From an uncultured Gemmatimonadaceae bacterium (lineage in GTDB: Bacteria; Gemmatimonadota; Gemmatimonadetes; Gemmatimonadales; Gemmatimonadaceae): 64,000 nt of DNA. The DNA lies in contig CAWBOC010000007.1 of assembly GCA_963790305.1 (NCBI GenBank), positions 192,001 to 256,000 of the forward strand, given 5' to 3'. How positions within the stretch are numbered: the stretch's first letter is position 1; every line of letters starts with the position of its first letter. The notes under the pieces were generated by a model. It did no database searches. It was given only the letters and a program-made list of their open reading frames with translations, and was not told the origin of the DNA. Positions 623-62,600 of the stretch are shown here, piece after piece. The translations under genes and the position numbers were made by a program.

Positions 623-1033
623 ATGACTACGGTTCAGCGCGTCGCCCAGATCTTCGGCATCGTGTTTCTCGTGGTGGCGCTGTATGGCTTCACGCAGACG
701 GGCATGGGCAACATGGAGTCCGACCCCGCTCGCGCGCCCCAGCTCCTCGGGCTGTTCGCGGTGAACGTGCTCCACAATGTGGTGCACCTGTTGTTCGGCA
801 TTTGGGGGCTGGTCGCGTCGCGCACGTTCAGCGGCGCCAAGAGCTACGCCCAGATCGCGGGCGTGCTCTACCTGGTCCTGGCCGTCGCCGGCTTCATCGT
901 GCCTAACGGGTTCGGCCTCGTCCCCCTGGGCGGCAACGATGTCTGGCTGCATCTCGTTCTCGGGCTCGTCCTCGCCGGCGTGGGGTTCACGGCGCGCGAG
1001 CTACGCCCGCCGGTGGTGGCGTCGCCGGTTTGA
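623..1033 (+). CDS. DUF4383-like membrane protein
   Basis: GGAGG RBS before ATG 623; LLGLFAVNVLHNVVHLLFG and NDVWLHL motifs; about 4 TM helices. Confidence 0.8.
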   Translation: MTTVQRVAQIFGIVFLVVALYGFTQTGMGNMESDPARAPQLLGLFAVNVLHNVVHLLFGIWGLVASRTFSGAKSYAQIAGVLYLVLAVAGFIVPNGFGLVPLGGNDVWLHLVLGLVLAGVGFTARELRPPVVASPV

Positions 1034-1036
1034 GCC

Positions 1037-1115
1037 CGAGGTAGTCGAGGTCGTCAAGGATGTCGAGGTGATCAAGGTGACGTCACCTCGATCACCTCGA
1101 CACCCTCGACTACCT
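1037..1115. repeat. Family A inverted tandem 9-mer element between convergent genes
   Basis: gaggtagtcgaggtcgtcaaggatgtcgaggtgatcaaggtgacgtcacctcgatcacctcgacaccctcgactacc. Confidence 0.9.
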
Positions 1116-1726: not shown

Positions 1727-4700
1727 GTGACCCGTCCATTTGGCGCGCTCGCGCGCCTCCGCGGCCACCTGGCGCTGGCGAGCGCGATCGCCGCTTTCGC
1801 GCCCGCCACGCTTTCGGCTCAGTACTTCGGACAGAACAAGGTCCAGTACGAGTCGTTCGATTTCCGTGTGCTCCAAACGGACCATTTCGACATTCACTGG
1901 TATCCGGCGGAATCGCTCGCCACGGCCGACGCCGCGCGAATGGCCGAACGCTGGTACGCGCGCCTCTCGCAGGGGCTCACCCACGCGTTCTCCAAGAAGC
2001 CGATCATCTTCTACGCGAACCACCCGGACTTTCAGCAAACGAATGTCGTGGGCGGCTTCATCGATCAGAGCACTGGCGGCGTCACCGAGGGACTGCGGAC
2101 GCGTATCGTCATGCCCTTTACCGGCGTCTACGCCGAGAACGATCACGTGCTCGGCCACGAGATCGTGCACGGGTTTCAGTACGACATCGCGATGACGCAT
2201 GCCGGCGGCCTGCAAGCCCTGGGGAGTCTTCCACTCTGGGTGATCGAGGGAATCGCGGAGTACTTCTCGGTCGGCCGGGAGGACTCACATACCGCAATGT
2301 GGCTCCGCGACGCCGCGCTGCGAAACGACATCCCCACCATCAACCAGCTCACCCGTAGCAACCGGTACTTCCCGTATCGTTACGGTCAGGCGTTGTGGGC
2401 GTACATTGGCGGCAAGTACGGCGACGAGGCCGTCTCGCGCATCTTCCGGGTGTCGCTGCGCGAGGGCTTCGAGGCCGCGTTCCGCCGCGTGCTCAGCGCC
2501 TCGACCGATTCCGTGTCCAAGGAATGGCATGCGGCGATTCGTGAGGCGTACCTGCCAGTCATTCAGGCCCGCACGACGCCGGAGCAGGCGGGGACGCGTG
2601 TGCTCGAGCGGTCGGGCGGGCGCCGGGGCGAAACGGACATTTCTCCGTCACTCTCGCCCGACGGGCGCCGTCTCGCCTTCTTCTCCGGTCGCGGCATTTT
2701 CGGCATCGACCTCTACATCGCGGACCCGGAGAGCGGCAGGATCATCAAGCGCCTGACGAGCCCGAACAACGACAATCACTTCGACGCCCTGAGCTTCCTC
2801 GCCTCGGCCGGCTCATGGTCTCCCGATGGGCAGCGGCTCGTCTTCGTGACGCAGGTCGAAGGCGACCACGAGATCTCGGTGTACGACATGGGGCAGAATC
2901 GGATCGTACAGACATTCCGTCCGCCCGAGGCTGAAGCGATCACCGATCCGTCGTGGGGTCCGGATGGACGGATCGCGTTCGTCGGCTACGGCGGCGGCAT
3001 CAGCGATCTCTACATCCTCGATCCCACGAACGGTGAGGTGCAGCGGCTCACCGACGACCGGTATACCGAGCTGCACCCGGCGTGGTCCCCAGACGGGCGC
3101 ACGATCGCATTCGCGACGGACCGCGATCCGGCGACCGACTTCGAGCAGCTCGCGTATGCCGAATTACGTCTCGCGCTCATCGATCCCGCGACGCGTGAGG
3201 TCCGTCTCGTTCCGCGTATCGCCGAGCGAGCGAAGCATACGAACCCGCAGTGGGCGCCCGACGGGCAATCGATCTTCTTCATCTCCGATCGCGGTGGGGT
3301 GAGCGACATCTATCGGTGGTCGCTCGATGGCACGGCCACTCAGGTCACGCGACTCGCGACCGGCGTCAGCGGGATCACGTCGTCCTCACCCGCGTTGACC
3401 GTCGCGCGCCAGAGCGGCCGGATGCTGATCTCCGTGTTCACGAACCAGGGGACGTCGCTGTTTCGTCTCGAGCCGCAGCAAACGGCGGGCAGTCCGTTGG
3501 TCGAAAGCGAGGGACAGCTGACCGCCGGAATCCTGCCTCCGGCGACACGAAGCAACATCGTCGCTGCCTATCTCGATTCCCCACTGCCGGGCCTTCCCCC
3601 ACCGTCGACTCCGTTCACCGTGACGGAGTATCGGCCGCGGCTGCAGCTCGACTACATCGGTGCGCCAGCGTTAGGCGTCGCGACCAGCCCATTCGGAACC
3701 GGTCTCTCGGGGGCGATCGCGCTGTACTTCGGCGACATGCTCGGCGACCGCGTCGTGGGCGGCGCCGTCCAGGCGCAGGGCTCGTTCAAGGACATCGGTG
3801 GCGAGGTGTTCTATCTCAACCAGAAGGGCCGGTGGAACTGGCTCGTCAGCGGGTCGCACATTCCGTATCTGAGCGGCTTCGCGGTTGGGTACGACACGCT
3901 GATTGGCGGAAGCGTGTACGACGTCATCGAGCGACAGCTGCAGCGCGCGTTCTACGACGAGATCGGCGGCACGATCCAGTACCCCTTCTCGCAGACGCGC
4001 CGGTTCGAGCTCGGGGTGTCGGGGACGCACGTCTCGTACGACGTGGAGATCGAGCGGTACTTCTTCGATCCCTTCCAGCAGGTCGGTCAGGAACGAGTCG
4101 GTGGACAGGCGCCTCCGGGCGCGACGTACGGCCAGGCGTCGGCGGCGCTGGTGGGCGACTACTCCGTGTTTGGCCTGACGTCACCGGTGGCCGGTGGACG
4201 CTGGCGGTTCGAAGTCTCGCCGGTGTTCGGCGATCTCAACTTCCAGGGCTTTCTGGCCGATTGGCGGCGATATTTCTACGCGCGGCCGGTGACCTTGGCG
4301 TTCCGCGCGCTCCACTTCGGCCGATATGGAAGGGACGCGGAGAGCAATCGCATCTCTCCGCTGTTCATCGGATTCGAATCGCTCGTGCGCGGCTATGCCT
4401 CGGAGTCCTTCGACGGCAGCGAGTGCTCGCGCAGCTCGTCCGACTGTCCGGAGTTCGACCGCCTGATCGGGAGTCGTATCGGCGTCGCCAGTCTCGAGAT
4501 GCGCATCCCGCTACTCGGCCCGGAGGGGTTCGGGTTGATTCCGTTCAACTTCCTTCCGCTCGAGATCGCGCCGTTCCTCGACGTCGGCGCCGCGTGGACC
4601 CAGGATCAGGGCGTACGCTTCGCCTTTGATCGCGAGACGCTCGACCGTGTTCCCGTGGCGAGCTATGGCGCGAGCGCGCGGGTGAACTTGTTAGGCTACG

Positions 4701-10694: not shown

Positions 10695-11648
10695 TCAGCG
10701 AACCCAGATCTCGAGCCCGCCTTGGGCGTTGCCAAGCCGCGTGTCCAGCCGACCGAGCGGAGTGAGTACGGACTGGACCGTCCGCGCTGCGCGCAGCTCT
10801 CCACTGGCGTAGGTGATAGCGTTGCCGGGCCAGGTTTCGCCGCCCCACACGGGCCTCGGCAGCGTGCGTGCGCCAAGGCAATTCAGTTTGGCGATCGCAT
10901 CGAGCCCCGCGTCGGGCTGCCGTGAATCGAAGTGCACGATGACGTCGCGACCGGAAAGGGCGCGAGCATGCGCGCTCTGCTCGGCGCACTGGGCGGACGG
11001 CACTAGGGCCCACTGAGCGCGGAGGCCTTCGAGGACGCGCTGGCGAATCGCGTGCACGTCGACGCCTCGCGCCTCGCCGTCGCCACCAACGCTCTCCACG
11101 TGCATGGCCACGACACCGGTGGCGGAGACGATCGGTGCGCCGGACACGCCCTCGGCCACCTCGAGGCCCTTGTATGACACCAGCTGCTTCGCCGCATCGA
11201 AAGCGCTTGCGTGGCCCGCCTCGTTAGGGATGTACCATTCACGCGATCGCCCGATGAACCACACCGGTTCCCCGACCCGCGGTCGCGCGGCCAGCGCATC
11301 GGGGCGCCACGCCAGGCCCTCCGGGTACGACGTGCGCACGATCGCGAGGTCGAGCGCCGGCTGTGAGCCAATAGCGTCGGCGACATAAACGATCGTGCCG
11401 AGTGCGCAGCTTTCTCCGCGGTGGGCAAAGCAGACGGTGACGGTATCGGTGGAGAGGTCGCGGAGGGTGTGCCAGGCGGTGGCGACGAGCAGGTGCCGAT
11501 CGGCCAAGCCCACGATGAATCCGAACCCGGTGTTCGCGCCGGCGTCGATGCGCGCAACGTTGCTCTTGAAAGAGGCAGGATTAGTCTGGGAGAGCGCGGC
11601 GCCTGGGCCAATGAGCGCGAACGCAAGCGCGCTCGCCGCAGCTCTCAT
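10695..11648 (-). CDS. Secreted trypsin-like (S1) serine protease with C-terminal extension
   Basis: Signal peptide; TAWH, LDLA, EGVSGAP give an intact His-Asp-Ser triad. Confidence 0.75.
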   Translation of the reverse strand: MRAAASALAFALIGPGAALSQTNPASFKSNVARIDAGANTGFGFIVGLADRHLLVATAWHTLRDLSTDTVTVCFAHRGESCALGTIVYVADAIGSQPALDLAIVRTSYPEGLAWRPDALAARPRVGEPVWFIGRSREWYIPNEAGHASAFDAAKQLVSYKGLEVAEGVSGAPIVSATGVVAMHVESVGGDGEARGVDVHAIRQRVLEGLRAQWALVPSAQCAEQSAHARALSGRDVIVHFDSRQPDAGLDAIAKLNCLGARTLPRPVWGGETWPGNAITYASGELRAARTVQSVLTPLGRLDTRLGNAQGGLEIWVR

Positions 11649-12523
11649 GGTTTGGCCTTGGGCAGAAAATGCACGAGGAGACCGACACCCGCGGCGATGA
11701 ACGCAATCGCGAGCCGCCAATGCGTGTGCGTCAAATGCTCGAGCATGGGTGGGCGCAAGTCGCGGCGGGCGATGGATGGCCGGGATGCCTTCCCCTTGAA
11801 CAGCGTTCGGATGGTGTCCCGTACGACCAGCTCTGCGATGCTCCCTTCGAGCTCCCCGAGCGTCACCGCATCACCGACGTGAGCAGTTGGCGCCGCCTCT
11901 CCCACCTCGCCCACGTCGGGGAGCTCCATGCGAGCACCGAGGATCGCGCTGCGAACGAGCCCGGTGTCACTGGTCTCGAAACGAATCGCCGAAACGGGAA
12001 GATTTCGAAAGTGCAGTGGATACGGCGGCTCGAATATGAGGGTCGCTGGCGCGCCCAGCTCGACGGGGCGCCGAACCTCCACCGGCAGGAAGTTGACAGA
12101 ATCGGCCAACGTCAAATCAGCCGACATCCGACAGGGGGCGGTCGAGCCAGCTGGCCACTCGACATCGAGCCGGATCAGGCGATCGACATAGTGCTCGAGG
12201 CGCACCGCGCACCCGGGCGTCACCTCGAGGCGCTGGAGCGAGTGGAGGCTGTTCGGAGAGGCGACAATGGGTGCGCCGGTGAACGCGCGCAGCGATGCGT
12301 CGTTAGGCAGCGCGGGCGTGAATCGAATGCCGGTGAAGGGCGAGCCGCCCGGTTCCAGCCCATATCGCGGGGCTACCGCCGTCACGAGGTCCAACGTCCG
12401 CGACGGGACGAACACCACCGCGTGGCTTCTGGCCTCCAGCACGACGTTGGGTCGTGCCTTCTTGAAGATCAACCCTGCCGCAATCAAGCCCAGGATAATG
12501 GTAAGTCCGATGAGGACTCGCAT
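11645..12523 (-). CDS. Hypothetical protein with N- and C-terminal TM helices
   Basis: Hydrophobic ends; stop overlaps start of protease gene. Confidence 0.65.
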   Translation of the reverse strand: MRVLIGLTIILGLIAAGLIFKKARPNVVLEARSHAVVFVPSRTLDLVTAVAPRYGLEPGGSPFTGIRFTPALPNDASLRAFTGAPIVASPNSLHSLQRLEVTPGCAVRLEHYVDRLIRLDVEWPAGSTAPCRMSADLTLADSVNFLPVEVRRPVELGAPATLIFEPPYPLHFRNLPVSAIRFETSDTGLVRSAILGARMELPDVGEVGEAAPTAHVGDAVTLGELEGSIAELVVRDTIRTLFKGKASRPSIARRDLRPPMLEHLTHTHWRLAIAFIAAGVGLLVHFLPKAKP

Positions 12524-14153: not shown

Positions 14154-14346
14154 GCGCGTCTCCCGAGCAAAGCGTGGCAGGGCAACGCGGACCGGAGCGG
14201 ACGAAGAGACCGTCCGCGGCTGGATGGATGGGCCGGACCGGATGAAGAGTGTATGGGTTACTGCCTGGCGCTGCAAGACACCTCTGTGATCGGTAGCGAC
14301 CCCGCGCGACGCAGGCGATTTTGACCGATGACCCTAACGCCCAAAC

Positions 14347-21687: not shown

Positions 21688-21728
21688 CGAATGGGCCCGT
21701 CGACGGCCTGCCTCGGAGCCGTCAGCAC

Positions 21729-23401: not shown

Positions 23402-23494
23402 CGAGCGCTTGGGACGGATAGCATTGGGTTGCCTGTCGCGGTGCCGCGCGCTATCCTAGCGGCCGACGCCTCATTCCTTTCGATGGAGCTCGCC

Positions 23495-44166: not shown

Positions 44167-46370
44167 CGCGGGAGTCCGCCGCCAGCGTGCGGGCACTCAT
44201 CGCGAACGCCTGGCTGGCGCCCGATGCGCCACAGACGTTAGGCAGCATCACGCTCCGTCCCCATCAGCGAGAGGCCGTGGCGCGGGCGCGTGTCGCGCTC
44301 GCGGCGCACGGTGGAGCGCTCATTGCCGACGACGTGGGCCTCGGAAAGACCTTCATCGCGCTCGCGCTCGCCGCGGAGGCGCAGCGCTCGCTCGTAGTCG
44401 GTCCGGCCGCGCTGCGCGCCATGTGGTCACACGCCTGTGCGCAAACCGGTGTGAACACGGAGTATCGCTCATATGAAGCACTCAGCCGGTCGCCGATGCC
44501 TGCGCAAGGCCACGACCTCGTCATCCTCGACGAGGCGCATCACGTGCGTACGCCGCGGACTGCTCGTTACCGGCATCTCGCGCAGGGATTGGTTGGCGCC
44601 CGAGTGCTTCTCCTCACCGCGACGCCGATCCACAACAGCATTCGCGACCTGCGTGCCGTGCTGGCGCTCTATCTGGGCGCGATCGCCTGGGCGATCAATG
44701 AGGGTGAGCTTGCAGCACACGTCATTCGACGAGAGCAGGAAGACGTGGGGTTCGACGCCCCGCTGCCCACGCTGGCGCCGCCTCGACCGATCACGCTCTC
44801 CAGCAATGACGACCTGCTCGACGAGATAATCTCCCTTCCGGCACCCGTTCCACCGCGCAATGGCGGCGACGGCGGCGCGTTGCTCTCGTTCACCCTCGCC
44901 AGATTGTGGGCGTCGAGTCACTTCGCGCTCCGTGCTGCCCTCCGCCGTCGCCTTCACAAAGCGCGGGCGCTCGAGGATGCGCTGGGCTGCGGACGTCATC
45001 CCACTCGTGGAGAGCTGCGCGCCTGGGCAATTGGCGACGACGCGACGCAGCTCGCCTTTCCCGAGCTTGTGGCGACGAGCGGAGAGGGCGACATCGGAGG
45101 TCTGTTAGGTGCGGTGGGTGCGCACGCTTCCGCCCTCGAGACACTCATCCGGGCGATGCCGGTTGATTCCCCGCACGATCGCGAACGCGCGGACCGCATA
45201 CGCGACATCGCGCTGAGGCATTCGGGCGAGAAGATCATTGCATTCACCCAGTTCGCGGACACGGCCACGGCACTCTTTCGCCTGCTGCGGGACTCTGTCC
45301 AATGCTGCCAGCTCGACGGGGGCGGCGCACGGGTGGCGGGCGGCCGTCTGTCCCGGCGTGAGGCACTCGCGCGATTCGCGCCGCGGGCGAGCGGAGCGGC
45401 GGAGCCGGCGGCGTCCGATCGCATTGATCTGCTCATCACCACCGATCTCCTCAGCGAAGGAGTCAATCTTCAGGACGCCTCGGTGGTGGTGCACCTCGAC
45501 CTGCCCTGGACCTCGGCCCGCATGGCACAGCGTGTTGGCCGCTCCCGCCGTCTTGGCGCCACCCATCCGTCGACCGTGGTTTATGCGATCGCTCCCCCGG
45601 CAGCTGCCGACGCGCTGTTGCGGCAGGAACAGCGGTTGCGCGAGAAGCTTCGCGCGGCAGCTCGTGTCACCGGCGCGTGCGGCGCGATCCTGCCCGTTAG
45701 GCTGGTGCTCGCGTCCGCGACCGCAATCGACGAAGAGAGCGCACCCACGCGCCACGCGCAGCTCCTTCGCGCGCTCCTCGCGCGCTGGCGTACCGGGCCC
45801 ATCGCGAGTGCAGGGCCGCCAGGCGCGTACGTTCGCGCCAGTACGTCAGGCGCCCTGGCCCTCGTGAGGCAGGGATCCGAGCGTCTGCTCGTGGCGCTCG
45901 TGGATGGCCAGGTGAGTGGCCGCCCCGCCGACATTCTTGCCGCCGCGCGACTCGCCGATGGCGACGAGAATATCGAGGACGACGTCGATCGAGTCACGCC
46001 AGTTCTGACGAAGCTCGAGGCGTGGCTGTCGGCCCGCGCCGGCGCCAGCGTCGCCGGCGTCGGTCACACCATCGCCGGAGCGGCCCGGCGCGTGGCGATG
46101 CAGCGCATCGCGCACATCGCCGCCCGCACCCCGCACCATCACCGGGCGCAGGTCGCTCCCCTCGCAGCCGAGGCACGGCGGATTGTGACCGCTCCCTACG
46201 GGGTTGGCGCGGAGCGCATCCTCGCCGAGCTCGCTGGTTCTGCCCTGCCCGACGAGGCCTGGCTTCAGGCCGTCCGGGCATTCGGGGATGCGAACTGCAG
46301 AGGCGCTGCAGGCGCTAGAGGCGCTAGAGGCGCTGGGACGATTGAAGCAATCATCGTGTTCGAGCCGTAA
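44151..46370 (+). CDS. SNF2-like superfamily 2 helicase/ATPase
   Basis: LRPHQ, ADDVGLGKT, LDEAH, TATP, TDLLSEGVNLQ, QRVGR. Confidence 0.9.
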   Translation: MDGPLTRESAASVRALIANAWLAPDAPQTLGSITLRPHQREAVARARVALAAHGGALIADDVGLGKTFIALALAAEAQRSLVVGPAALRAMWSHACAQTGVNTEYRSYEALSRSPMPAQGHDLVILDEAHHVRTPRTARYRHLAQGLVGARVLLLTATPIHNSIRDLRAVLALYLGAIAWAINEGELAAHVIRREQEDVGFDAPLPTLAPPRPITLSSNDDLLDEIISLPAPVPPRNGGDGGALLSFTLARLWASSHFALRAALRRRLHKARALEDALGCGRHPTRGELRAWAIGDDATQLAFPELVATSGEGDIGGLLGAVGAHASALETLIRAMPVDSPHDRERADRIRDIALRHSGEKIIAFTQFADTATALFRLLRDSVQCCQLDGGGARVAGGRLSRREALARFAPRASGAAEPAASDRIDLLITTDLLSEGVNLQDASVVVHLDLPWTSARMAQRVGRSRRLGATHPSTVVYAIAPPAAADALLRQEQRLREKLRAAARVTGACGAILPVRLVLASATAIDEESAPTRHAQLLRALLARWRTGPIASAGPPGAYVRASTSGALALVRQGSERLLVALVDGQVSGRPADILAAARLADGDENIEDDVDRVTPVLTKLEAWLSARAGASVAGVGHTIAGAARRVAMQRIAHIAARTPHHHRAQVAPLAAEARRIVTAPYGVGAERILAELAGSALPDEAWLQAVRAFGDANCRGAAGARGARGAGTIEAIIVFEP

Positions 46371-47884: not shown

Positions 47885-48826
47885 ATGTTTGCACGATATC
47901 TGTGGGCGGCCGTGCTGACCGCCGCTACCGCGCTGTCCGCCGGCGCGCAAGCGAAAGACAAGGATAGGGACCGGGATCGGGATCGCGACGACGAGCGCGA
48001 GTACACATCGCGCATCGACACGATCCTGCCACTCAGCCGCAATGGCGCCGTCGAGATCCGCCTGCACACGGGCGACATCATCGTGACCGGCTGGACGCGC
48101 AATGAGGTGAGGGTGCGCGGCGCGAGCGAGCGGGGACAGATCCGTGTCGATGCCACGGCGTCGCACATCGAGATCGGTACGCGGCCCGAGCACAGCCGGC
48201 ACGGCGAAGCGCACGTGGAAGTCACCGTCCCGGAGGGCACGCGACTCACGGTGGCCGGCAGCTCCGCGGACGTCTCCGTGCGGGGCGTGAAGGGTGAGGT
48301 CGAGGTCACGACAATGAACGGCGACCTCGAGATCGACAACGCCTCATCGCGCGTGAGCTTCGAGAGCGTGTCGGGGGATGTGCAGATCTCGCGAGTGCAG
48401 GGCGATCTGCGCGGCGAGGCAATGAGCGGTGAGATCGACATCACCAATGTCGCCGGCGTGGTGGAAGTCGAGAGCGTCAGCGGTGATCTCACCCTGCACA
48501 ACGTGCGGTCGAAGTCGGTGCGCGCCGAAACGGTGAGCGGGTCCATCGAGTTCGAGGGGCGCACCGAGACCGGCGGTCGCTACGACTTCGCGTCGCATTC
48601 GGGGGACGTGCGGCTCATGCTGCCATCGGCGTTAGGCGCGTTGATCTCGGTGGAGACCTTCAGCGGTACGATCGACAGCGACTTCCCGATCACGCTTCAG
48701 CCCGGACAGCGGCACGGCAAGGAGTTCGAGTTCCAGGTCGGTGATGGTGGCGCGCGCATCGGCGCGACCTCGTTCAGCGGTGGTATCTACATTCAACGCA
48801 GCGGCACCAGCCGCAACCCGGAGTGA
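47885..48826 (+). CDS. DUF4097 beta-strand-repeat protein
   Basis: Signal peptide, repeated xSVSGD/I units. Confidence 0.85.
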   Translation: MFARYLWAAVLTAATALSAGAQAKDKDRDRDRDRDDEREYTSRIDTILPLSRNGAVEIRLHTGDIIVTGWTRNEVRVRGASERGQIRVDATASHIEIGTRPEHSRHGEAHVEVTVPEGTRLTVAGSSADVSVRGVKGEVEVTTMNGDLEIDNASSRVSFESVSGDVQISRVQGDLRGEAMSGEIDITNVAGVVEVESVSGDLTLHNVRSKSVRAETVSGSIEFEGRTETGGRYDFASHSGDVRLMLPSALGALISVETFSGTIDSDFPITLQPGQRHGKEFEFQVGDGGARIGATSFSGGIYIQRSGTSRNPE

Positions 48827-51254: not shown

Positions 51255-54200
51255 GTGCACGACGCGGTCACGCACTCTCACGCACCATTCGCCGGTCGAT
51301 ACGCGATCGAGCGAGAGCTCGGCCGCGGTGGTATGGCCACCGTGTACCGCGCCCGCGACATGCGCTACGACCGCGCGGTCGCCCTCAAGGTCCTTCATCA
51401 GGAGCTCGGCGCCTCGAAAGGGGGCGAACGGTTCGCGCGAGAGATTCGCGTCCTCGCCGGGTTGCATCACCCGCACATCCTGCCGCTCTTCGATTCCGGC
51501 GAGTACGAAGGCGCCATTTTTTACGTCGTCCCCTGCATCGAAGGCGAATCGCTGCGACGCCGCCTCGAGCGCGAGCGTCAGCTCCCGCTCGAGGAAGCGC
51601 TGCGTATTACGCGTGAGGTCGCTGATGCGCTCGACCATGCGCACCGCCACGGGGTCATCCACCGCGACATCAAGCCGGAGAACATCCTGCTCGAGGAAGA
51701 CCACGCGATCGTGGCTGACTTCGGCGTTGCACGCGCGGTCACGCGAGCGGCAGGCGAGTCGCAGACGACCGCGGGAATGGTGGTGGGAACGCCCGCGTAC
51801 ATGTCGCCAGAGCAGGCGAGCGGCGACCACGATCTCGACGGGCGCAGCGATCAGTATTCACTGGCGTGCGTGCTGTACGAGATGCTCGCCGGCAGCCCTC
51901 CCTTCTCCGGCGCGACGCCGCGCGAGACGATCGCGCGACGGTTCACCGAGCCGCCGCCATCACTCCGCGGCGAGCGGGATGTTCCCGAGGCGCTCGATCG
52001 CGCGATCCGTCGTGCACTGTCGCCGGTACCGGCGGATCGCTTCCCCGAGGTGCATGCGTTCGCGAAAGCGCTGCAGGCGGCGGAATCCCCGGCGCGGCCG
52101 GCTCGGAGGGCCATGACGTTAGGCATTCCGGCCGTGGCCGCGATCGCGCTGGCACTGGTGATCTGGTGGCCCCGGGGCGGCGGCGCAGACACCGTCGACC
52201 CTGGGCTCCACGCCGTCATCCCATTCGATGTCGAAGGCACGGTGCCAGGCGGCCTCGACGGTGCAGCGGCGGCCCGTCATTTGGGGCGGGCCCTCGGATT
52301 CTGGCGAGACATGCGTCTCGTGGACGGTTTGCGCACGAGCGATGCCGTTGCACAGCATGGCGCAATACGCACCTTGAGCGATGCGCTGGCGGTCGCCCGT
52401 GCGCTGGGGGCGGGGCATCTCCTGTGGGGCGACATCTGGAACCGCGGAGACACCGTCGAGGTCCGCGCGACCGTATACGATGTTCGCACCGGACGCGAGC
52501 AACGCAGCGCCTCCGTCGCCATGGGCGCGGACGTTTCCGGCATCGCCGCCGCGTTCGAGGCGTTGAGCGATTCACTCGCCCTGGGAAAGCTGCGAGACCG
52601 CACCGCCGCTCCCGCGGCGCGAAGCACGCGATTGCGCGAGGCATTCGTGTACTACGAAGCCGGGCACGACGCGCTCGCAGAGTGGGATCTCGTTAGGGCG
52701 GAGCGCGAGTTTCGCCGCGCGTCGGAGCTCGATCCAGATTTCGCGCAGGCTGCGCTCTGGGCGGCGCAGTCGATGGCCCTCCGCGGCGCAGAACCGGGGG
52801 AGTGGCGAACCACGGCGGCACGCGCCGTTGCGCGACGGGCCGTGCTGGCGCCGCGCGAGGCGCTCCAGGCCGCCGGTCTGCTCGCGTTGGCCGAGCATCG
52901 CTTCCCGGCCGCCTGCGACCAATATCGATCGATGCTGGCGCGCGACTCACTGGACTTCACCGCCTGGCATGGTCTCGCCAACTGCCAGGCGCGCGATCCG
53001 GTGGTGGAGCGCGATGCGCAGTCGCCAAGCGGCTGGCGGTTTCGGAGCAGTCTGCATGCCGGACTGGAAGCGTATCTCCGTGCCATGGAGATTCTCCCCT
53101 CGTTTCACCGCGCCGCCACGCAGTTGTCTCCGCTGTCGACCGATCTCTTCCCGGTGGAGGAGACGAGCGTCCGCACCGGCCATGCAGTGACGCCGGACAG
53201 CCAGCGGTTCGCGTCGGGCGCCGGACTCGAAGGCGATACGCTCGCGTTCATCCCGTTTCCGATGGCCGATCTCCTCGCCGGTACGCATGATCCCTGGCCG
53301 GCGACCCACGCAGCCGCGGTGGCGTGGGCGCGGGACCGGCTGCGTCGCATCGCGGAAAGCTGGGTTCGCGCATTTCCAGGCAGCGGACCTGCGCGCGAGG
53401 TTCACGCAGCCGCCCTGGAGGTCGGTGGAGATCTCCAGCGAGCGCTGACCGAGGCACGCCAGGCGCGAGCGTTCACGTCCGACGTCATTGGGCGGACGCG
53501 CGTTGCGCATGTCGAAGTGCGGCTGCTCGTAAAGCGCGGCGAGTACGAGGCTGCTCGCCAGGTCGCCGACTCCGTGCTCTCTGCCCGATCCGACCCGAGG
53601 CAGGCCGAGGTGCACGCGCTGGCCGGCCTCGCTGCCTTGACCGGTCGCGTGCATCGCACGCGGGCGCTGCTCGAAGCCCACGCCGACGACACGACGTTTG
53701 CTTTCTGGTATGAGGGCGAGCGTGTAATCGCGCCCCGCCCTGTCGCGCGGGCCGCGCTCGCCTTGCTCGCGTACGCGTCCTTCCCCGAGCCGCGCGATAG
53801 CGCCATCGCGCTCGCTCGACGCGTGCGTCAGCTCATCGACATGTGGGTTCCCGCGGGGCGACGCGAGCGCGTGCGCGCCGCGACGATGCTGCATCCCGTG
53901 ACATTCGGGCTGTGGCGCATCGAGCCCCGCTCTGTCCTGTCCATCAAGGCACCCGGTGAGCTGCACCGACTGCAACGCGCGCTCGCCGTGCGCGACACGG
54001 CCGCCGTTCGCGCGGCGGGACGGAGGCTTGCGGCAACCACGCCTGATGAGAGGCGTGGGGACGTGGATGTCGTGTACCAACAGGCGCTCGTCTTTCTGGC
54101 CGCCGGTGATACCACGACAGCAACCCTTCTCCTCGACAATGTGCTCCGAGATCTGCCGATGAGCCCGGGCTGGCTATTGGAGGATGTGCATCGCGCCGCG

Positions 54201-55115: not shown

Positions 55116-56203
55116 ATGACTTTCGCCCAGACCCCTCTCTTCTCGGCCGCCTACGAGCGCTCCTCCCGCCAGCTCCCCGTCCTTGGCGAGCAGCGAGACA
55201 TCGCCTACGTGGGCACGCGGGCGAAGAACGTCCTCAACGGTCCGGAAGTCACGAAGATGGGGTACTGGTCGATCAACCCCTACATCGGCTGCGCGTTCGG
55301 GTGCACCTACTGCTACGCCCGGTACGCGCACCGCTACGTGATGGAGCGCTCCGTCACCGCCAATGTGCTGACGGAGGACGTTAGGCAGTCCGCCGCCGCC
55401 ATGCCCGCCGTGGCTCGCCTTCGAGCGGCGGATCTTCGTCAAGCAGAACGCCGCCGAGGTGCTCGCGCGTACGCTGCGGCACGGGAGCGACAAGCATCTG
55501 CGGCTGCATCCAGGGCGAGACGATCCTCATCGGCACTGCGACGGATCCGTATCAACCCGCCGAACGTCGCTATCGCGTGACGCGCGGTATCCTGGAGGTG
55601 CTCGCCGAGCATCCAGGGCTGGACATCGTCATCATCTCGAAGAGTCCGCTCGTCACTCGCGACGTCGACCTGCTGCGTCGCATCGCGCGTCACTCGTCGC
55701 TCTCGGTCCATCTCTCGCTGATCACGCTCGATCGCGCGCTCGCGCGCCGCATCGAGCCGCGGGCACCGACGCCCGAGGCGCGGCTGCGCGCGCTCGTGCG
55801 GCTTCGTGAGTCGGGCATCGACGCCGGGATCAACTGCATGCCAGTGCTCCCCGGCATCACCGACGATCCGCGTGGCCTCGAGGCGCTGGTGAAACGGGCA
55901 GCAGAGCTGGGCGCGACCTTCGTGAGCGTCTCGTCGCTCCGGCTTCGGAAGACGGCGCAGCAGCGCTACTTCCCATTCATTGAGCGGGAGTTTCCGCATC
56001 TGGCCGCGCACTATCGCAAGGCCTACGCGACGACCTGGCATCTGAGCGACCGCTATCGCGAGTCGTTAGGGAAATTCTTCGACAAGCTGTGCCGGAAGTA
56101 CGGGGTTGAGGGTGGAATGGGGCGGAGCGATGCGGAGGAGGAGGGGGGAGCGGAGCGGACGGAGCTTCCGGCGCAGCTGGGGTTGTGGGAGGAGGGAGGC
56201 TGA
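55116..56203 (+). CDS. Radical SAM protein, SplB/Rv2578c-like; two single-base frameshifts (~55404, ~55507)
   Basis: SINPYIGCAFGCTYCYAR, FERRIFVK, IGTATDPYQPAE, ISKSPLVTRDVD, PVLPGITD spread over three frames. Confidence 0.88.
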
Positions 56204-56293: not shown

Positions 56294-56325
56294 GGGTGGG
56301 ATGACCTTGGGGCGGAGGTGGGGAG

Positions 56326-57594
56326 ATGCTGACGCTAGAGCAGAAGCTCGACATTCTGATGACGCTCGCGACCGACGATCAGGACGGTCCACCGGGATCA
56401 CAGACACTGCCGCCGAGGCTGCGGCACACGAAAGAGGTCGGCGCACTGCGGCCGCTCAACATTCGCACCGTGCGTCCAGGGAACGGGATGCGAGTCCCGC
56501 TGCTGCGCATCCTCATGACCAACGCGTGCAGCTACAACTGTCACTACTGCCCCATGCGACGGGATCGAAAGCTCCCGCGCACGCTCCTCAAGCCCGAAGA
56601 GCTCGTTAGGATCTTCCTCGGCGCCCACCGCCGCGGGTGGTGTGAGGGGCTGTTCATCACCACCGGGATTCCCGGACGGCCGGTGAAGGTGATGGATGAT
56701 CTCATCACGGTGCTCGAGCTTCTGCGCGAGCGGCACAGCTTCGCCGGCTACATCCACGTCAAGATGGTGCCGGGCGCCGAAGCCGCGCAGGTGGAACGGC
56801 TCACCTCGCTGGCGAGCCGCGTCTCGCTCAATCTCGAGGCGCCGTGCGGCGCGAGCCTGGCGCAGATCGCGCCCGACAAGAATTTCGACGTCACTGTCGC
56901 CGGCCTCGAGCAGGTGCGCGCGCTGGTGACGCTCGAGCGGGCAGCGCGGCAGGAGGGTAAGCCGCGCGATCCGATTCATCCCGGCGGCACGGCGGGAATG
57001 ACGATGCAGTTCGTCGTCGGCGCGACGCCCGACTCCGATCGCAGCATACTCACCAAGGTCACCGAGCTGTATTCCGGTGGCGGCATTCACCACGCGCACT
57101 TCAGCGCGTTCCGCCCCATCAGCGAGACACCAATGGAGAACGTGCGCGGCACGCCAGCGCTGCGCGAGCACCGGCTCTATCAGGCCGACTGGCTGCTTCG
57201 GCGCTACGGCTTCGAGCGCGGTGAGGTGGTCTACGACGAGGGCGGCAATCTGCCGCTCGGCATCGATCCGAAGGCAGCGTGGGCGTTGCGCAACGTGGAG
57301 CGATTCCCCGTGGAGGTACGCACCGCGTCGTACGACACGCTCCTCCGCGTGCCGGGAATCGGGCCGGGGACGGCGCGCCGCATCGTGGCCGAGCGCGGCA
57401 CGGCGGTGCTGCGCGGCCTCGCCGATCTCCGCAAGCTCGGTGTGCTCACCTCGCGCGCGGCGGGATTCATCACGTTAGGCGGACGCCGGCTGCAGGATGT
57501 GCGATGGAGCGAGCAGCTGGGATTCTGGCAGCCGGAAGAGGAAGCGGGCGCCTATCAGCTCGTCTATGACGTAAGTCCGGGCACGTTCAGGTAG
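56326..57594 (+). CDS. Putative DNA modification/repair radical SAM protein with helix-hairpin-helix (TIGR03916-like)
   Basis: LMTNACSYNCHYC, FAGYIHVK, REHRLYQADWLLRRYGF, LLRVPGIG. Confidence 0.9.
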   Translation: MLTLEQKLDILMTLATDDQDGPPGSQTLPPRLRHTKEVGALRPLNIRTVRPGNGMRVPLLRILMTNACSYNCHYCPMRRDRKLPRTLLKPEELVRIFLGAHRRGWCEGLFITTGIPGRPVKVMDDLITVLELLRERHSFAGYIHVKMVPGAEAAQVERLTSLASRVSLNLEAPCGASLAQIAPDKNFDVTVAGLEQVRALVTLERAARQEGKPRDPIHPGGTAGMTMQFVVGATPDSDRSILTKVTELYSGGGIHHAHFSAFRPISETPMENVRGTPALREHRLYQADWLLRRYGFERGEVVYDEGGNLPLGIDPKAAWALRNVERFPVEVRTASYDTLLRVPGIGPGTARRIVAERGTAVLRGLADLRKLGVLTSRAAGFITLGGRRLQDVRWSEQLGFWQPEEEAGAYQLVYDVSPGTFR

Positions 57595-57678: not shown

Positions 57679-58368
57679 ATGCCCTCTTCCGTCGCCGCCC
57701 TTCGCGCGCTCGTCGAGCAGCGCTTTCCCGATGCGCTTCCCATCACGCATCGGACGACGGCGGTCGCGACCGGCATGGCCGCTCTCGACCACATTCTACC
57801 GAGCGGCGGGCTTCCGCGGGGGCGGCTGTCGGCGTGGGACTCGCAGGGAGGCGCGACGGCCATCCTGCGGGCGGCATGCCTAACGACCGTGCAAGCGGGC
57901 GAGCGCGCCGCCTGGATCGATGGACGCGGCGCAGTGGGCGGTGTCGTGTGGGACGATGGACCCATCCTTCTCCGCCCCAGCAATCTTCCGCAGGCGCTTC
58001 GCTCCGCCGAGGAGCTGCTCCGGTCTGGGGGGTTCGGCCTCATCGTGCTCAGCGGCCTCGAGCCCGCCCGCACCGAGACGGTGCGTCTGACGCGCGCCGT
58101 TCGCGAGGGAGGCGCAGCCTTCGTCACGGTCGCGCGCGAATCCTCGATGGCAAGCCTGCGCCTGACGTCGCGCCTGCTTCCGAACGGCTATCGCTGGCGC
58201 CGCGATCCTTTCGGCGGTCCCGCCGAGGCGCAGGCCGCGGTCATTCGTGTGCACGCGCAGGCGCCGGGCTGGAACGCACACACCGATCTCTCGATCCCGA
58301 TCATCCATCATGAGCTTCGTCTGTCTCTGGACGCCACGCTGGCAGACCGACGCGGCGTCCGCCGCTGA
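57679..58368 (+). CDS. imuA: ImuA-like degenerate RecA-family protein
   Basis: TGMAALDHILPSGGLPRG, AWID, AEELLRSGGFGLIV; no Walker A; position before imuB-dnaE2. Confidence 0.75.
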   Translation: MPSSVAALRALVEQRFPDALPITHRTTAVATGMAALDHILPSGGLPRGRLSAWDSQGGATAILRAACLTTVQAGERAAWIDGRGAVGGVVWDDGPILLRPSNLPQALRSAEELLRSGGFGLIVLSGLEPARTETVRLTRAVREGGAAFVTVARESSMASLRLTSRLLPNGYRWRRDPFGGPAEAQAAVIRVHAQAPGWNAHTDLSIPIIHHELRLSLDATLADRRGVRR

Positions 58369-59644
58369 GCTCGCGCCAATCCTCCTGGCGTCGGTGCCGC
58401 GCGTCGCGACCGACGCGCGCGGTCGGCTGTGGGCGGATGCGCGTGGGATGAATGCGCGCGCCGTCGCCGGCGAGCTGCTCGAGTTGATGAGAGCTCGAGG
58501 GGTGATCGACGTGCGTGTGGGCGTGGCTTCGGCGCCGATCGTCGCGGAGCTGGCTGCAACGGCTGATTGCGCGCTGCCCGGAGGGCACCCGCTGATTGCT
58601 GATTGCGTATTCGTCGAGTCTGGTCGGGATGCCGAGTTTTTGGCGCCTCTGCCGATCAATGTGCTCTCGCCATCACCCAAGCTCCTTCCGTTGCTCGATG
58701 GGACCGGCATCGCCACCTGTGGTGATTTGGCGATTCTGGATCTCGAAGCAGTCGAAGTGCGTTTCGGCATCGAGGGCGTGCGGCTCTGGCAGCTCGCGCG
58801 GGCCGATGACCGGCGGCCGATCTTCACCGAGGTGCCCCGCGAGCTCCCGCACGCGTCGGTCGAGTGGGCCGACTACACGCTCACCGATCCCGAGCGGCTC
58901 GTCTTCATCATCAATGCGCTGGCCGAGCGAGTGATCACGTCGCTCGATGAGCGAGGGGAGAGCGCGCGGGAGCTGGCGCTCGTTCTGTCGCTCGCCAATC
59001 GCGAGCAGAATACCAGCCGGATGCGCTTCACGCGGCCGACCACGAATCGCAAGAGCTGGATGCGCCAGATCCGCGCCGTCCTCGAGCGGCTGACGTTAGG
59101 CGATGCGATCACCGGCGTGCTGCTCCGGGTCGACGCGCTCGCCGCCAAGCGAAGCCCGCAGGGCGACCTGTTCGACCGCGGCTTCGCCAGCGCCGGCGCG
59201 ACAGAGCAGGCGCTGGCGCAGCTCATGGATGATCAGGGCGAGATCCTGTTCACACCGCAGCGTACCGGCCATGCGCTGCTCGATCGACGGACGCGGTGGA
59301 TCGCCGAACAGCCGTCGACGCTCGTCGAGCGCAGCGGGAGCGAGGTCGGCGCCGCGCGCGCCCCTGCCCTGCCCAGCCTCACGCTGCAGCTCCTCCCCCA
59401 GCCGCAGCCCATCGCGGTCGTCACGAGCGAGCGCCGCGATCACTGCATCCCTCTGCGCTATCGGGACGACGTCGTCTGGCATGACCTCACCGATGTCGCG
59501 GGCCCGGATCGCACCTCGGGTGGCCACTGGGAGGGAGGCTACGCGCGCGAGTATTTCCGGGGAGTCAGGGAAGATGGGGTGCTGGTGTGGTTGTTTCGAG
59601 ATGCGATTGAGGAGACGTGGTTTCTTCACGGATTGTGGGATTGA
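58310..59644 (+). CDS. imuB: ImuB-like inactive Y-family polymerase
   Basis: FLAPLPI, GIATCGDLA, RFG..G, QGDLF clamp motif, GPDR.SG.HW...AREYF, WFLHG.WD. Confidence 0.85.
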   Translation: MSFVCLWTPRWQTDAASAAELAPILLASVPRVATDARGRLWADARGMNARAVAGELLELMRARGVIDVRVGVASAPIVAELAATADCALPGGHPLIADCVFVESGRDAEFLAPLPINVLSPSPKLLPLLDGTGIATCGDLAILDLEAVEVRFGIEGVRLWQLARADDRRPIFTEVPRELPHASVEWADYTLTDPERLVFIINALAERVITSLDERGESARELALVLSLANREQNTSRMRFTRPTTNRKSWMRQIRAVLERLTLGDAITGVLLRVDALAAKRSPQGDLFDRGFASAGATEQALAQLMDDQGEILFTPQRTGHALLDRRTRWIAEQPSTLVERSGSEVGAARAPALPSLTLQLLPQPQPIAVVTSERRDHCIPLRYRDDVVWHDLTDVAGPDRTSGGHWEGGYAREYFRGVREDGVLVWLFRDAIEETWFLHGLWD

Positions 59645-62600
59645 GTCGAGGCGGTCGAGGTCGTCCAGGTCGTCGAGGTGATCGAGGGAACGTCGCCTCG
59701 ATTACCTCGACGACCTCGACGACCTCGAGCACCTCTTGCTACTCCGAGCTCCGCACCCACACCGGCTTCTCGTTCGGCGACGGCGCCACCACCCCCGAGC
59801 GGCTCGTTATGCGCGCCCGGCAGCTCGGCTACACCAGTCTCGGCATCACGGATACCACGGACCTCGGAGCGGTGCCTCGGTTCGTGACCGAGGCGCGGAC
59901 GATCGCCAAGGATCCCGACTGTCGTCGCGCCGCGAGCCACGCCGACGAGCCCTGCCCCATCTGCGAGCGGCCGCTGCGGCCGATCGTTGGGGCGGAGCTC
60001 ATCGTCGACGGCTATCCCGCCGCCTTTCTCGTTCGCGATGAGCGCGGCTGTCGCAATTTGGCCGCGCTGCTCACCTGTGCTCGCGTCGGCAGATGGGAGG
60101 AGTGGGAGAAAGCGGCGCAGGGAAAGCGGCGCGGGCATCCACAGGTAACGTGGGAGCAGCTCGCCGCTCGCAGCGACGGGCTGCACGCGCTCACCGGGCC
60201 GGCGTCTGGGGAGATCGCGTCACTCTTACGCGCCGGCGATGAAGCGGGAGCCGAGCGCGCGCTCGACAGATGGCGCGACGTCTTTGGCGCTCGGATCGCG
60301 ATCGAAGCTCAACTCCATCACGTCGGCGGATCCGAAGCGATGCTCGCCGGGTCATTGATCGAGCTCGCCGAGCGTCGTGGAGTCCCGTGGGTCGTCGCGC
60401 ACGATCCGCGCTACCTCGACGACACGGGACGGCTCGTTCACGACATGCTCACGGCGCTTCGTCACGAGATGGATCTGTCGACGGCCGCCGAGCGCGGCGT
60501 CTTGCGACCTAACGGGGAATGGCGATTGATCGCGCCCGCGCAGATGGCGCGCCGGTGGCGAGGCCGAGCGGAAGGGCTGCGCGAGAGCCAGCGGATCGCC
60601 GAGGAATGTGAATTCGATCTGCGATGGATGCGTCCGCCGCTTCCGCACTACCCCGTCCCGGAGCGTAACGACGACGACTCGTATCTCCGCGAGCAGACCT
60701 ACGCCGGAGCACACGAGCGGTGGGGCACCACGCTTTCCGACGCACAGACGCATCAGCTCGAGCACGAGCTCGCCCTCATCAAGCAGCTCGGCTTCGCTGG
60801 ATTCTTTCTCGTCATGTGGGACGCCATGCAGTTCGCCCGTGAACGCGGAATCCTCTCCCAGGGACGCGGCAGCGCCGCCAACTCGGCGGTCGCGTACTGC
60901 CTCGGCATCACCGCCGTCGACCCCGTCAAACATGGCCTGCTGTTCGAGCGCTTTCTCTCCGAGATCCGCGCGGAGGGGGGCGCTGAAGCGCCGGACATTG
61001 ACGTGGACATTGAGCACGACCGGCGCGAGGAGGTGCTCGACTACGTCTATGCGCGCTACGACCGCGCGCACGCCGCCATCGCCTGCATCGTCCAGACGTA
61101 CCGCGCGCCCAACGCCGCGCAGGACGCGATGCGGGCGTTAGGCTACCCGCCGGAGATGATGTTCGCGATCTCGAAGCGCGTGCACCATCACGAGCCGGCG
61201 GCCGGCGCCGAGTACATTCGCGAGAGCGCCGCGGCGCGCGCGGGAGTCGACATCACTGACCAGCGCGGCCGCACCCTGCTTGCGGCAATGGCCGGCTTCG
61301 AGGGACTTCCCCGGCTTCGAGCGACCCACGTCGGGGGCTTCGTCCTCTCCTCCGCCCCACTCGGCGACTACCTGCCGATCGAGCAGACGACGATGGGGCG
61401 GACGATCGTGCAGTTCGACAAGGATGATCTCGACGCGGTCGGCGCGCCGAAGTTCGACTTCCTGGGGCTGGGGGCGCTGTCGCAGGTGCGCCGCGCGTTC
61501 GACGTCATTGAGCGGCGGACCGGCACGCGTCCCGAGATGTATCGGCTGCCGCAGGATGATGCGAAGAGCTACGACCTGATCGCGCGCGGCGAGACGATCG
61601 GGATGTTCCAGATCGAGAGTCGCGCGCAGATCGCATCGATCCTGCACACGCGTCCGGCATACCTGTACGATCTCGTGGTGCAGGTCGCGCTCATTCGGCC
61701 CGGGCCGATCCAGGCGAAGTTCGTTCACCCCTACACACAGCGGCGCCTCGGTCTCGAGAAAGTCGTGTACGCGCACCCGGCGCTCGAGCCGATTCTCCGG
61801 CGCACCCAAGGCATTCCGATCTTCCAGGAGCAGGCGATGGCGATCGCCATGGCGCTCGGCGGCTACACGGGCTCCGAGGCGGACGAGCTGCGGCGCACGA
61901 TGGGGAACCAGCGAAAGAAGGATCGTCTGCTTCGATCGCTGCAGCGGCTGGCGCATCGCCTCGTCGAGCACCAGATCGACGAGCGCATCGCATTGAAGAT
62001 CTGCGAGGACCTGCAGAGCTTCGCGAATTACGGCTTTCCCGAATCACATGCCTGGAGCTTCGCGCTCATCGCGTACGCGACCGCCTGGCTCAAAGCGCAC
62101 TATCCAGCGGAATTCTATGCCGGCTTGTTGAACTCGTGGCCGATGGGATTCTATCCCGTCTCGACGCTCATCCACGACGCGCGACGCCATGGAGTCGAGG
62201 TGCGGCCCGCCTGTCTTCGCGATGGCGATTGGGAATGCACGGTGGAAGAGACCGGCCAGCCCGACCGGCCGGCCATGCGCATCGGATGGCGGCACATCCG
62301 CAACGTGGGGACGAAGCTGCTCGATGCGCTACGCGCGAGTCGCAGCGATTCCCCCTGGACCTCGATCGCCGATGTCGTCAGGCGCACCCGACTCATTCGC
62401 AGTGATGCGCTGTCGCTGGCACGCGCGGGCGCATTCGGCGCCTGGGAGCCCGACCGGCGCCGCGCCGCCTGGCAGGCACTGCACGCCGTGGGAGACGTGC
62501 TTCCGCTCGCCCCAGCGCGGATGACATCACACGATCCGCCGCCCCTGGACCCGTTGCAGCTCATCTTTCTCGACTATACGACGACAGGGTCGAGCATCCA

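Follow-up and report, generated by a model that had tools for sequence, protein, structure and literature searches.

A hyper-abundant octamer that may work like a DNA uptake sequence in a Gemmatimonadaceae bacterium and its relatives

The 64-kb stretch of DNA analyzed here (G000:C7:192001-256000, referred to as the window) belongs to the assembly of an uncultured Gemmatimonadaceae bacterium (G000; 4.31 Mb in 13 contigs, 66% GC, 94% complete) and is rich in the heptamer CGTTAGG, whose favored longer form is the octamer CGTTAGGC. This word occurs at about 20 times the expected frequency in G000, and hyper-abundance of the same word recurs patchily within one bacterial order. As the original prediction had proposed, the signal appears to be read at the level of DNA: it is found in all stop-free frames and between genes, exceeds a codon-aware null model, and is retained in congeners. 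With a probability of about 0.4, we tentatively read CGTTAGGC as a self word that works like the DNA uptake sequences of the Neisseriaceae and Pasteurellaceae.

Abundance and placement of the word in G000

In the window, CGTTAGG was counted 30 times (21 on the plus strand, 9 on the minus strand), whereas 100 dinucleotide shuffles gave a mean of 2.46 and a maximum of 6, none of them reaching 30. The core GTTAGG without the 5' C added three further sites (4690, 24627, and 45104). All 29 positions listed in the original prediction for CGTTAGG and its complement CCTAACG were correct; one site on the minus strand (27257) had been overlooked. The claimed over-representation is real and extends to the whole genome, with 1229 copies of CGTTAGG (106 or 138 expected from Markov models of order 2 and order 3, respectively), 1547 of GTTAGG, 1105 of GTTAGGC, and 855 of CGTTAGGC (40 or 44 expected). 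With Markov models of order 1 to 3, CGTTAGG was the most over-represented 7-mer and CGTTAGGC the most over-represented 8-mer of G000. With an order-4 model the excess shrank to 1.8-fold (7-mer) and 2.6-fold (8-mer), because the 5-mers feeding this model derive mostly from the word itself; 1547 of the 2900 TTAG tetramers in the genome belong to GTTAGG. The drop thus represents signal absorbed by the model and is no refutation of the excess.

For a codon-aware null model, synonymous codons were shuffled within each of 3543 coding sequences in 60 replicates. The coding sequences were obtained with our own crude gene caller and covered 82% of G000; the procedure is conservative, since the rare codons of each gene are retained. 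The excess persisted, with 511 sense and 404 antisense copies of CGTTAGG (32.7 and 74.2 expected), and 384 sense and 295 antisense copies of CGTTAGGC (13.9 and 27.4 expected). In agreement with the earlier statement that the word forces rare codons into genes, 442 of the 1041 TTA codons, the rarest leucine codon, fall in CG|TTA|GG.

The information around all sites in G000 is confined to eight bases (70% C after GG), and the flanks are unconserved. The word is built around the core GTTAGG; C is preferred at either flank, and GTTATG is tolerated. Single-mismatch neighbors at core positions, transversions included, reached 0.2 to 0.5 of their expectation; the variants CGTTATGC (6.9-fold) and CGTCAGGC (2.1-fold) were enriched, as were variants at the two end positions. 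Judged by these counts, the mismatch profile is one of apparent graded binding specificity, rather than of single-mismatch repair.

The word was present in all four stop-free frames, on both strands, and in intergenic DNA; several frames and intergenic copies had been noted before for the window. Approximately 26% of the sites in G000 are intergenic or lie at gene ends, compared with approximately 18% of the sequence; 61 of 914 TAG stops are located inside GTTAGG and 58 of 487 TAA stops inside CCTAAC. Within genes, 656 core sites were sense and 464 antisense, a preference that results from opportunity and codon cost. The share of silent-write opportunities actually occupied was 24.2% for PN[VADEG], 13.9% for [SPTA]LG, 3.3% for xLT, and 0.9% for xVR, i.e. 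occupancy declines with rising codon cost, as in a cost balance. These values parallel the reading-frame and codon result for uptake sequences given by Findlay and Redfield 2009 (PMC2817400).

Sites are spaced more evenly than by chance. Nearest-neighbor gaps were depleted at 0-25 bp (1 versus 13.3 expected), 50-100 bp (8 versus 27.5), 100-200 bp (29 versus 53), and 200-400 bp (68 versus 101) and were in excess at 800-3200 bp, and long gaps were near exponential (38 above 10 kb versus 43 expected). Adjacent sites had the same orientation in 615 and different orientations in 601 cases, with no alternation. The longest word-free gap (30 kb, 63.2% GC) coincides with a polysaccharide-synthesis cluster (G000:C13:206819-237005). 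This cluster comprises sugar-nucleotide and glycosyltransferase genes, few of which were called by the codon model, and it encodes a TIR domain fused to a mannose-1-phosphate guanylyltransferase/isomerase (976 aa).

CGTTAGGC is solitary, and the other frequent words AATGCGGA, AGGAGTCAG, and CTAGAGGCG are fragments of tandem 7- to 9-mers from which long intergenic hairpins are formed. AATGCGGA (628 copies) and AGGAGTCAG (271 copies) are parts of tandem heptamer arrays with GGAATGC and GGGGTCA units, and hairpin elements also account for the top-ranked words CTAGAGGC and AGGCGCT. Four near-perfect hairpins are located between genes of the window (40750-40850, 46295-46410, 49628-49728, and 56205-56300; -60 to -92 kcal/mol, z -9 to -11), with arms made of tandem 9-mers of the GCGCTAGAG or GTCGAGGAT type. 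Similar elements of 85-110 nt were found at many loci and in either orientation in five congeners.

A strand bias had been claimed for CGTTAGG. It holds for the window (21:9) but not for the genome (601 plus, 628 minus). The G-rich strand carries 445 of the 859 sites that could be assigned to a GC-skew domain (51.8%, p=0.31), a value predicted by 62% gene co-orientation and a sense share of 56%; 50-kb bins were approximately 50:50 on either side of the GC-skew switches in contigs C5 and C6, so that no skew with respect to the replichores is apparent. The plus excess of the window arises because its genes lie mostly on the plus strand (almost all of those between 38 and 64 kb), together with a mild sense preference (20 of 25 genic sites are sense). 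A run of 15 consecutive plus sites (32720 to 57473) is the longest in G000, and runs of at least 15 were obtained in 78 of 2000 orientation shuffles. The strand bias therefore belongs to the window and not to the word. The sites of the window are the following (gene assignments with codons and encoded residues in brackets).

902..908, minus strand, word site CGTTAGGC, antisense in gene 623-1033 (CCT AAC GGG, PNG)
3669..3675, plus strand, word site CGTTAGGC, sense in 1727-4783 (GCG TTA GGC, ALG)
4690..4695, plus strand, core-only site TGTTAGGC, sense (TTG TTA GGC, LLG)
11222..11228, plus strand, word site CGTTAGGG, antisense in 10695-11648 (CCT AAC GAG)
12301..12307, plus strand, word site CGTTAGGC, antisense in 11645-12523 (CCT AAC GAC)
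14333..14339, minus strand, word site CGTTAGGG, intergenic or gene boundary
17241..17247, minus strand, word site CGTTAGGC, intergenic or gene boundary
21683..21689, minus strand, word site CGTTAGGT, gene boundary; its TAA ends the open reading frame 21430-21687
23397..23403, minus strand, word site CGTTAGGA, intergenic (own gene calls)
24429..24435, minus strand, word site CGTTAGGC, intergenic (own gene calls)
24627..24632, plus strand, core-only site AGTTAGGC, intergenic (own gene calls)
25663..25669, plus strand, word site CGTTAGGT, intergenic or gene boundary
27257..27263, minus strand, word site CGTTAGGG, sense in 26935-28434 (TCG TTA GGG, SLG); the site overlooked before
32720..32726, plus strand, word site CGTTAGGC, sense in 32575-33486 (ALG); starts the run of 15 plus sites
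33395..33401, plus strand, word site CGTTAGGG, sense (SLG)
39069..39075, plus strand, word site CGTTAGGC, sense in 38306-39601 (PLG); kept in 2 of 3 aligned congeners
40247..40253, plus strand, word site CGTTAGGC, sense in 39598-40752 (ALG); kept in 3 of 4 aligned congeners
43148..43154, plus strand, word site CGTTAGGC, sense in the methylase gene 41022-44087 (GTT AGG CGC, VRR)
43342..43348, plus strand, word site CGTTAGGG, sense in the methylase gene (ALG)
44236..44242, plus strand, word site CGTTAGGC, sense in the SNF2 helicase gene 44151-46370 (TLG)
45104..45109, plus strand, core-only site TGTTAGGT, sense (LLG); in G000 only among 5 aligned genomes
45695..45701, plus strand, word site CGTTAGGC, sense (GTT AGG CTG, VRL); two congeners read GTCAGG
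48630..48636, plus strand, word site CGTTAGGC, sense in 47885-48826 (ALG)
52117..52123, plus strand, word site CGTTAGGC, sense in the kinase gene 51255-54365 (TLG); kept in 5 of 5 congeners
52691..52697, plus strand, word site CGTTAGGG, sense (VRA); in G000 only, GTTGGG in one congener
55379..55385, plus strand, word site CGTTAGGC, intergenic (own gene calls)
56064..56070, plus strand, word site CGTTAGGG, sense in 55577-56203 (SLG)
56604..56610, plus strand, word site CGTTAGGA, sense in 56326-57594 (VRI)
57473..57479, plus strand, word site CGTTAGGC, sense (TLG); ends the run of 15 plus sites
57879..57885, minus strand, word site CGTTAGGC, antisense in 57679-58368 (TGC CTA ACG)
59094..59100, plus strand, word site CGTTAGGC, sense in 58310-59644 (TLG)
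60508..60514, minus strand, word site CGTTAGGT, antisense in the dnaE2-like gene 59809-62964 (CCT AAC GGG)
61136..61142, plus strand, word site CGTTAGGC, sense in the dnaE2-like gene 59809-62964 (ALG)

The last four of these sites lie in a mutagenesis cassette (57679-62964) composed of imuA-like, imuB-like (IMS_C), and dnaE2-like (DNA_pol3_alpha) genes, which is preceded by two radical-SAM genes, one with an HHH motif. An Rfam scan of the window gave no matches.

Distribution among relatives and origin of sites

The distribution of CGTTAGGC was determined in a set of 31 genomes, which includes the unpublished, word-poor G015 (9 copies) and falls into 12 rich and 19 poor genomes. All nine genomes of the genus contain 382-1006 copies. 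In the same family beyond the genus only G012 (605 copies) and G016 (6360 copies in 5.1 Mb) were rich, and in a sister family only G030 (345 copies); the remaining 19 genomes had 3-65 copies. In a survey of 401 genomes of the phylum, 16 had at least 450 copies, 12 of them in family f1 (genera g1, g29, g32, g36, g38, g40, g41, and g43 being rich) and four in family f2 (genus g71), whereas none of the 136 genomes of families f4-f12 exceeded 70 copies. Genera g5, g9, and g18 likewise count among the rich lineages. Hyper-abundance is patchy and confined to one order. In an rpoB tree of 21 genomes, with G015 among the poor ones, at least three changes of the trait were required, starred branches parting the rich lineages. 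The density amounts to 0.2-0.36 per kb in G000 (one site per 3.5-5 kb), and G016 and genus g38 reach 1-2 per kb. The same logo was obtained from 217 kb sampled in G016, with 1.93 core sites per kb in both orientations (213:207) and an even more regular spacing (coefficient of variation 0.83).

Retention of sites was followed in a syntenic 20-kb region (38-58 kb of the window) in five congeners with 74-85% nucleotide identity. The word was intact in 33 of 57 site-by-genome cells (58%, roughly double the 19-41% of control hexamers in the same phase), and the sites at 45104 and 52691 represent gains specific to the G000 lineage. A codon alignment of rpoB contained 4, 3, 3, 15, and 4 sites in five rich genomes and none in 16 poor ones, G015 among them. 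These sites occupy conserved ALG, PLG, TLG, GLT, and PN positions, at which poor genomes use codons such as CTC/CTG or CCG/CCC, and they were created by changes from CTC/CTG to TTA, CCG to CCT, and CTC to CTA. A few entail an amino acid exchange, e.g. AFG to ALG in the genus. Word sites originate through silent substitutions even in conserved genes such as rpoB. Four rpoB positions are common to distinct rich lineages (two to G000 and G016, two to G016 and G030), which may reflect convergence given the few permissive positions.

Possible readers of the word

In the mechanism proposed for a word that works like an uptake sequence, CGTTAGGC would be read as double-stranded DNA irrespective of its orientation. 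The reader protein, most likely a component of the DNA-uptake apparatus, would prefer DNA bearing the word; word-bearing fragments would be taken up and recombined more often, better matches would displace poorer ones, and the word would build up in resident DNA until halted by codon and protein costs. We infer all three of its elements: DNA uptake as a process, a bias of uptake toward the word, and the identity of the reader. The likeness to uptake sequences is drawn because of the abundance, the strand symmetry, the solitary and evenly spaced sites, and the cost-balanced placement, and also because of the depletion of near-matches, the retention of sites, and their absence from a probably acquired locus. 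We use the term "works like" an uptake word, rather than "is" one, because no receptor was found and because the trait is distributed in an on/off manner rather than in family-wide dialects.

Genes of the uptake machinery are on hand for such a role: ComEC was present in all 31 genomes and PilT in all 60 of the sets searched, and 59 of the 60 had a small HHH_3 (ComEA-like) gene. Being universal in the order, word-poor genomes included, these genes are uninformative and explain nothing of the patchiness. Several observations weigh against a role in uptake. The ComEA-like gene was not seen in G000, where its expected place beside pilT falls at a contig end. A search for the receptor domain ComP_DUS (PF16732) gave no match in five genomes and was uninformative, the controls being equally silent. 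Terminator-like inverted pairs as in Neisseria are missing; only five pairs 40-160 bp apart exist. The density is 0.29-0.33 per kb across all five quintiles of codon typicality, with no drop in atypical genes. The identity of the word with the integron R box, treated below, is left unexplained by uptake. Known uptake sequences are shared by whole families and come in dialects. In the present order, genera either have this one word or lack it, and the same applies within genus g38, where three species have 3479-4141 copies and G288 has 66. Dialects in word-poor genomes were considered and rejected: a 400-kb sample of G010, the sole poor genome sampled, contained no hyper-abundant word and GTTAGG at expectation (12 versus 9-19), while the word was evident in an equal-sized sample of G000 (80 versus 3.9 expected). 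As far as this one poor genome tells, the trait is therefore on/off and not a matter of dialect.

The strongest alternative, though in our view an unlikely one, is a binding or attenuation site of a chromosomal protein unrelated to DNA uptake. The word could mark self DNA and thereby halt or divert a nuclease or helicase tracking along it (a Chi-like logic with other enzymes), or it could bind a nucleoid or repair factor for which a site is required at intervals of a few hundred to a few thousand bases. Such a reader accounts for the spacing equally well as uptake does, since an even spacing in two orientations is predicted by "one site within reach of any point". The graded specificity, as in protein binding sites, and the retention in congeners are also in line with it; the same word in at least three separate lineages would fit a mobile or switchable reader, and the density in G000 resembles that of Chi in E. 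coli. On the other hand, our searches yielded no candidate reader, most rich genomes lack the classical Chi readers, and 1-2 sites per kb, as in G016 and genus g38, lies above any known Chi or nucleoid-site system. A Ddb-like LTD (lamin-tail) lipoprotein, discarded as a candidate, was present in 10 of the 31 genomes and missing from the rich G001, G003, G012, G016, and G030. The four readings that follow (integron, methylase, polar motif, and composition) rank lower than both an uptake word and a chromosomal-protein site.

In cassette arrays of relatives, the R' and R'' boxes have the very sequences of GTTAGGC and its complement, and the core of the word fits the consensus of the R box to which integron integrases bind (GTTRRRY / RYYYAAC). 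This identity may be a coincidence, or may reflect a link between uptake and cassette traffic or a shared reader. That the copies serve as, or derive from, integrase-recognized sites (attG-like landing sites), or are read by an integrase or Xer-type relative, appears improbable to us. For it speaks that bases 1-24,000 of contig C95 of the poor G021 form a classical cassette array with attC sites of the form GCCTAAC-A...(approximately 80-130 nt)...C-GTTAGGC, that most of the few hits in poor genomes fall in same-strand arrays at approximately 550-bp spacing, and that an integron integrase is common in the order (22 of the 31 genomes scored above the cut-off). According to PMC12614218 (citing Loot et al. 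2024), integrases use the R and L boxes to act on attI in its double-stranded form and can place cassettes at genomic attG sites. However, the presence of the integrase does not follow the trait, and it was rejected as the reader: it is intact in many poor genomes (three copies in the poor G288), was not found in the rich G012, G005, and G396, and in G016, which has the highest density of all, its frame is broken into three. An origin of the G000 copies as attC remnants was likewise rejected, as the sites are solitary, form only the five inverted pairs, lack attC hairpins and conserved flanks, and arose in rpoB by point substitutions in conserved codons, not by insertion or excision. Landing sites within essential genes would also do harm, and the attC-like repeats of G000 itself bear GTTAGGG and not the favored 8-mer.

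Chromosomal integron cassette arrays in word-poor relatives are located at G021:C95:1-27000 and also on G021:C80, where the array abuts a broken intI, G019:C3, and G029:C1. They comprise approximately 35 attC sites (GCCTAAC...GTTAGGC), one every 500-650 bp on one strand. G000 encodes an intact integron integrase (G000:C9:694912-695922, 449 bits), and downstream of it (698800-711000) at least four copies of a repeat of approximately 50 nt (AACTAACCGTTGCAACTGTCAGGCGCGAC-N-GTTAGGGTAGCCATCGCAGTTCG; 698853, 699369, 703000, and 710801) lie on the same strand, which may be attC-like sites of an unusual array. Elsewhere on contig C9, an rpoC-like frame (423022-426027) is open for just 1001 aa, and a weak open reading frame on the opposite strand was called at 421887-423005, where the 3' part is expected; possible explanations are a frameshift, a split gene, and an error in the assembly.

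Somewhat less credible still is that the word is the target of a DNA methyltransferase, be it the enzyme encoded in the window or another, and that its excess results from methylation-linked biased repair or selection, as proposed for the cyanobacterial octamer HIP1. Positions 41022-44087 encode a type IIG-like methylase of 1021 residues (PADLOC REase_MTase_IIG, 137.6 bits), adjoined by a SNF2 helicase (739 aa, 44151-46370). Type IIG-like enzymes read short asymmetric adenine-containing sites, and uptake in Campylobacter is reported to depend on methylation, so that word-dependent uptake could do likewise. However, restriction targets are usually avoided and not enriched, and the enrichment does not track this enzyme. 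A homologue of the methylase was found in 29 of 31 relatives, all 19 word-poor ones included; its apparent lack in the rich G004 is not usable, as the contig breaks off at the locus in an assembly that is 90% complete. In each 100-residue segment, the degree of identity to the G000 enzyme reflects taxonomy, with no part confined to rich genera, which argues against the earlier suggestion that the resident methylase recognizes the word. Even spacing is not predicted by a site-autonomous repair bias, and the depletion of transversion neighbors at several positions does not fit one mismatch type. Very-short-patch repair of the Dcm/Vsr type was rejected as the driver for the latter reason and because neither a C5 methylase (PF00145) nor Vsr (PF03852) was found in G000. 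The methylase and SNF2 pair as such (41022-46370) is conserved across the order (29 of 31 relatives, 37-87% identity according to taxonomy), which is unusual for a defense-type pair and points to a housekeeping function.

A classical polar chromosome motif, either Chi read by RecBCD or AddAB or a guide of FtsK like the FtsK-orienting polar sequences (KOPS), had also been suggested. An asymmetric octamer, a roughly Chi-like density in G000, and the 21:9 ratio of the window seemed to favor it, but we consider it highly improbable, as the word shows neither a preference for the G-rich strand nor a shift across the GC-skew switches, and searches of G000 (94% complete) revealed neither RecC nor a nuclease of the AddAB type. 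The nuclease domain PDDEXK_1 had no match in any of the nine genomes of the genus, three of which were also searched for RecC and gave no hit. Among the 31 genomes, PDDEXK_1 was not matched in 11 of 12 rich ones, G030 giving weak hits only, and was matched in 8 of 19 poor ones; a second set of 16 rich genomes contained one strong AddAB-type hit (G214). RecC was detected in four genomes of the panel of 60, two of which belong to its 21 rich members, and the rich genus g36 has it. The poor G288 carries an AddAB-like pair, and its three rich congeners do not. An inverse link between AddAB and the word was considered and is weakened by the rich G214 (AddAB-type) and g36 (RecC); the contrast in end resection by genus (approximately 2 of 12 versus 12 of 30) is not convincing, and relatives are non-independent. 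Overall, the order shows a patchy distribution of AddAB-type gene pairs and few instances of RecC.

Finally, base composition, codon usage, or a family of dispersed repeats as the source of the excess is already contradicted by the codon-aware null model and the G010 sample: although an order-4 Markov model cuts the 7-mer excess to 1.8-fold, the codon-aware model leaves a 5- to 28-fold excess, the rarest leucine codon is needed, no conserved flanks surround the sites, and G010, with a similar GC content (67.5%), has GTTAGG at expectation.

Comparison with known systems

A literature search found no paper on the word; Gemmatimonadetes combined with the term "DNA uptake sequence" had no match in full texts, and the literal word gave primer-type matches only, among the matches listed. 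Of the known systems, HIP1 (GCGATCGC) is a hyper-abundant cyanobacterial octamer that is written into genes by silent changes. The G000 word is likewise a hyper-abundant octamer placed in genes silently; however, HIP1 is a palindrome linked to a cognate methylase, whereas the G000 word is asymmetric and the methylase of the window does not track it. With Chi and KOPS it shares over-representation as an asymmetric 8-mer, in G000 at a density of about one per 3.5-5 kb, and it differs in the absence of a replication-strand skew and in that the readers were not found in most rich genomes. From the R boxes of attC and attI the genomic copies differ in that they have no hairpin partner and reside in conserved codons.

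The closest parallel appears to be with the DNA uptake sequence (DUS) and the uptake signal sequence (USS). DUS comprise 10-12 nt and the USS core 9 nt, whereas the G000 word has only 8 specified bases; DUS and USS reach approximately 0.8-0.9 copies per kb, compared with 0.2-0.36 per kb in G000. USS are evenly spaced. Like DUS and USS, the G000 word is short and non-palindromic and occurs in hundreds to thousands of copies equally on both strands. It is mainly genic, with frames set by codon cost (compare PMC2817400) and with depleted near-matches, and it is kept between relatives and absent from a probably acquired locus. PMC2397512 describes DUS as absent from recently acquired genes, to which the word-free 30-kb polysaccharide cluster may be compared, and new DUS sites as arriving within recombination tracts. 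The G000 word belongs to a different phylum than the hosts of DUS and USS, and no receptor was found for it.

A wider scenario, which we regard as rather unlikely, would be that one order of soil bacteria possesses a self-recognition or uptake system outside the Proteobacteria, with a tag of eight letters spelled like an R box, switched on or gained independently in at least a dozen genera and reaching up to two copies per kb. Integron cassettes would then be the preferred cargo because each attC carries the tag twice, and natural transformation would be tied to cassette exchange in soil. To our knowledge, hyper-abundant uptake-type words have been shown to work in only two proteobacterial families. 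A comparable word is now at hand in common soil bacteria of another phylum, whose close relatives differ in a clean on/off manner, and the contrast within genus g38 (66 versus approximately 4000 copies) makes its origin, its reader, and the question of drive versus selection directly testable.

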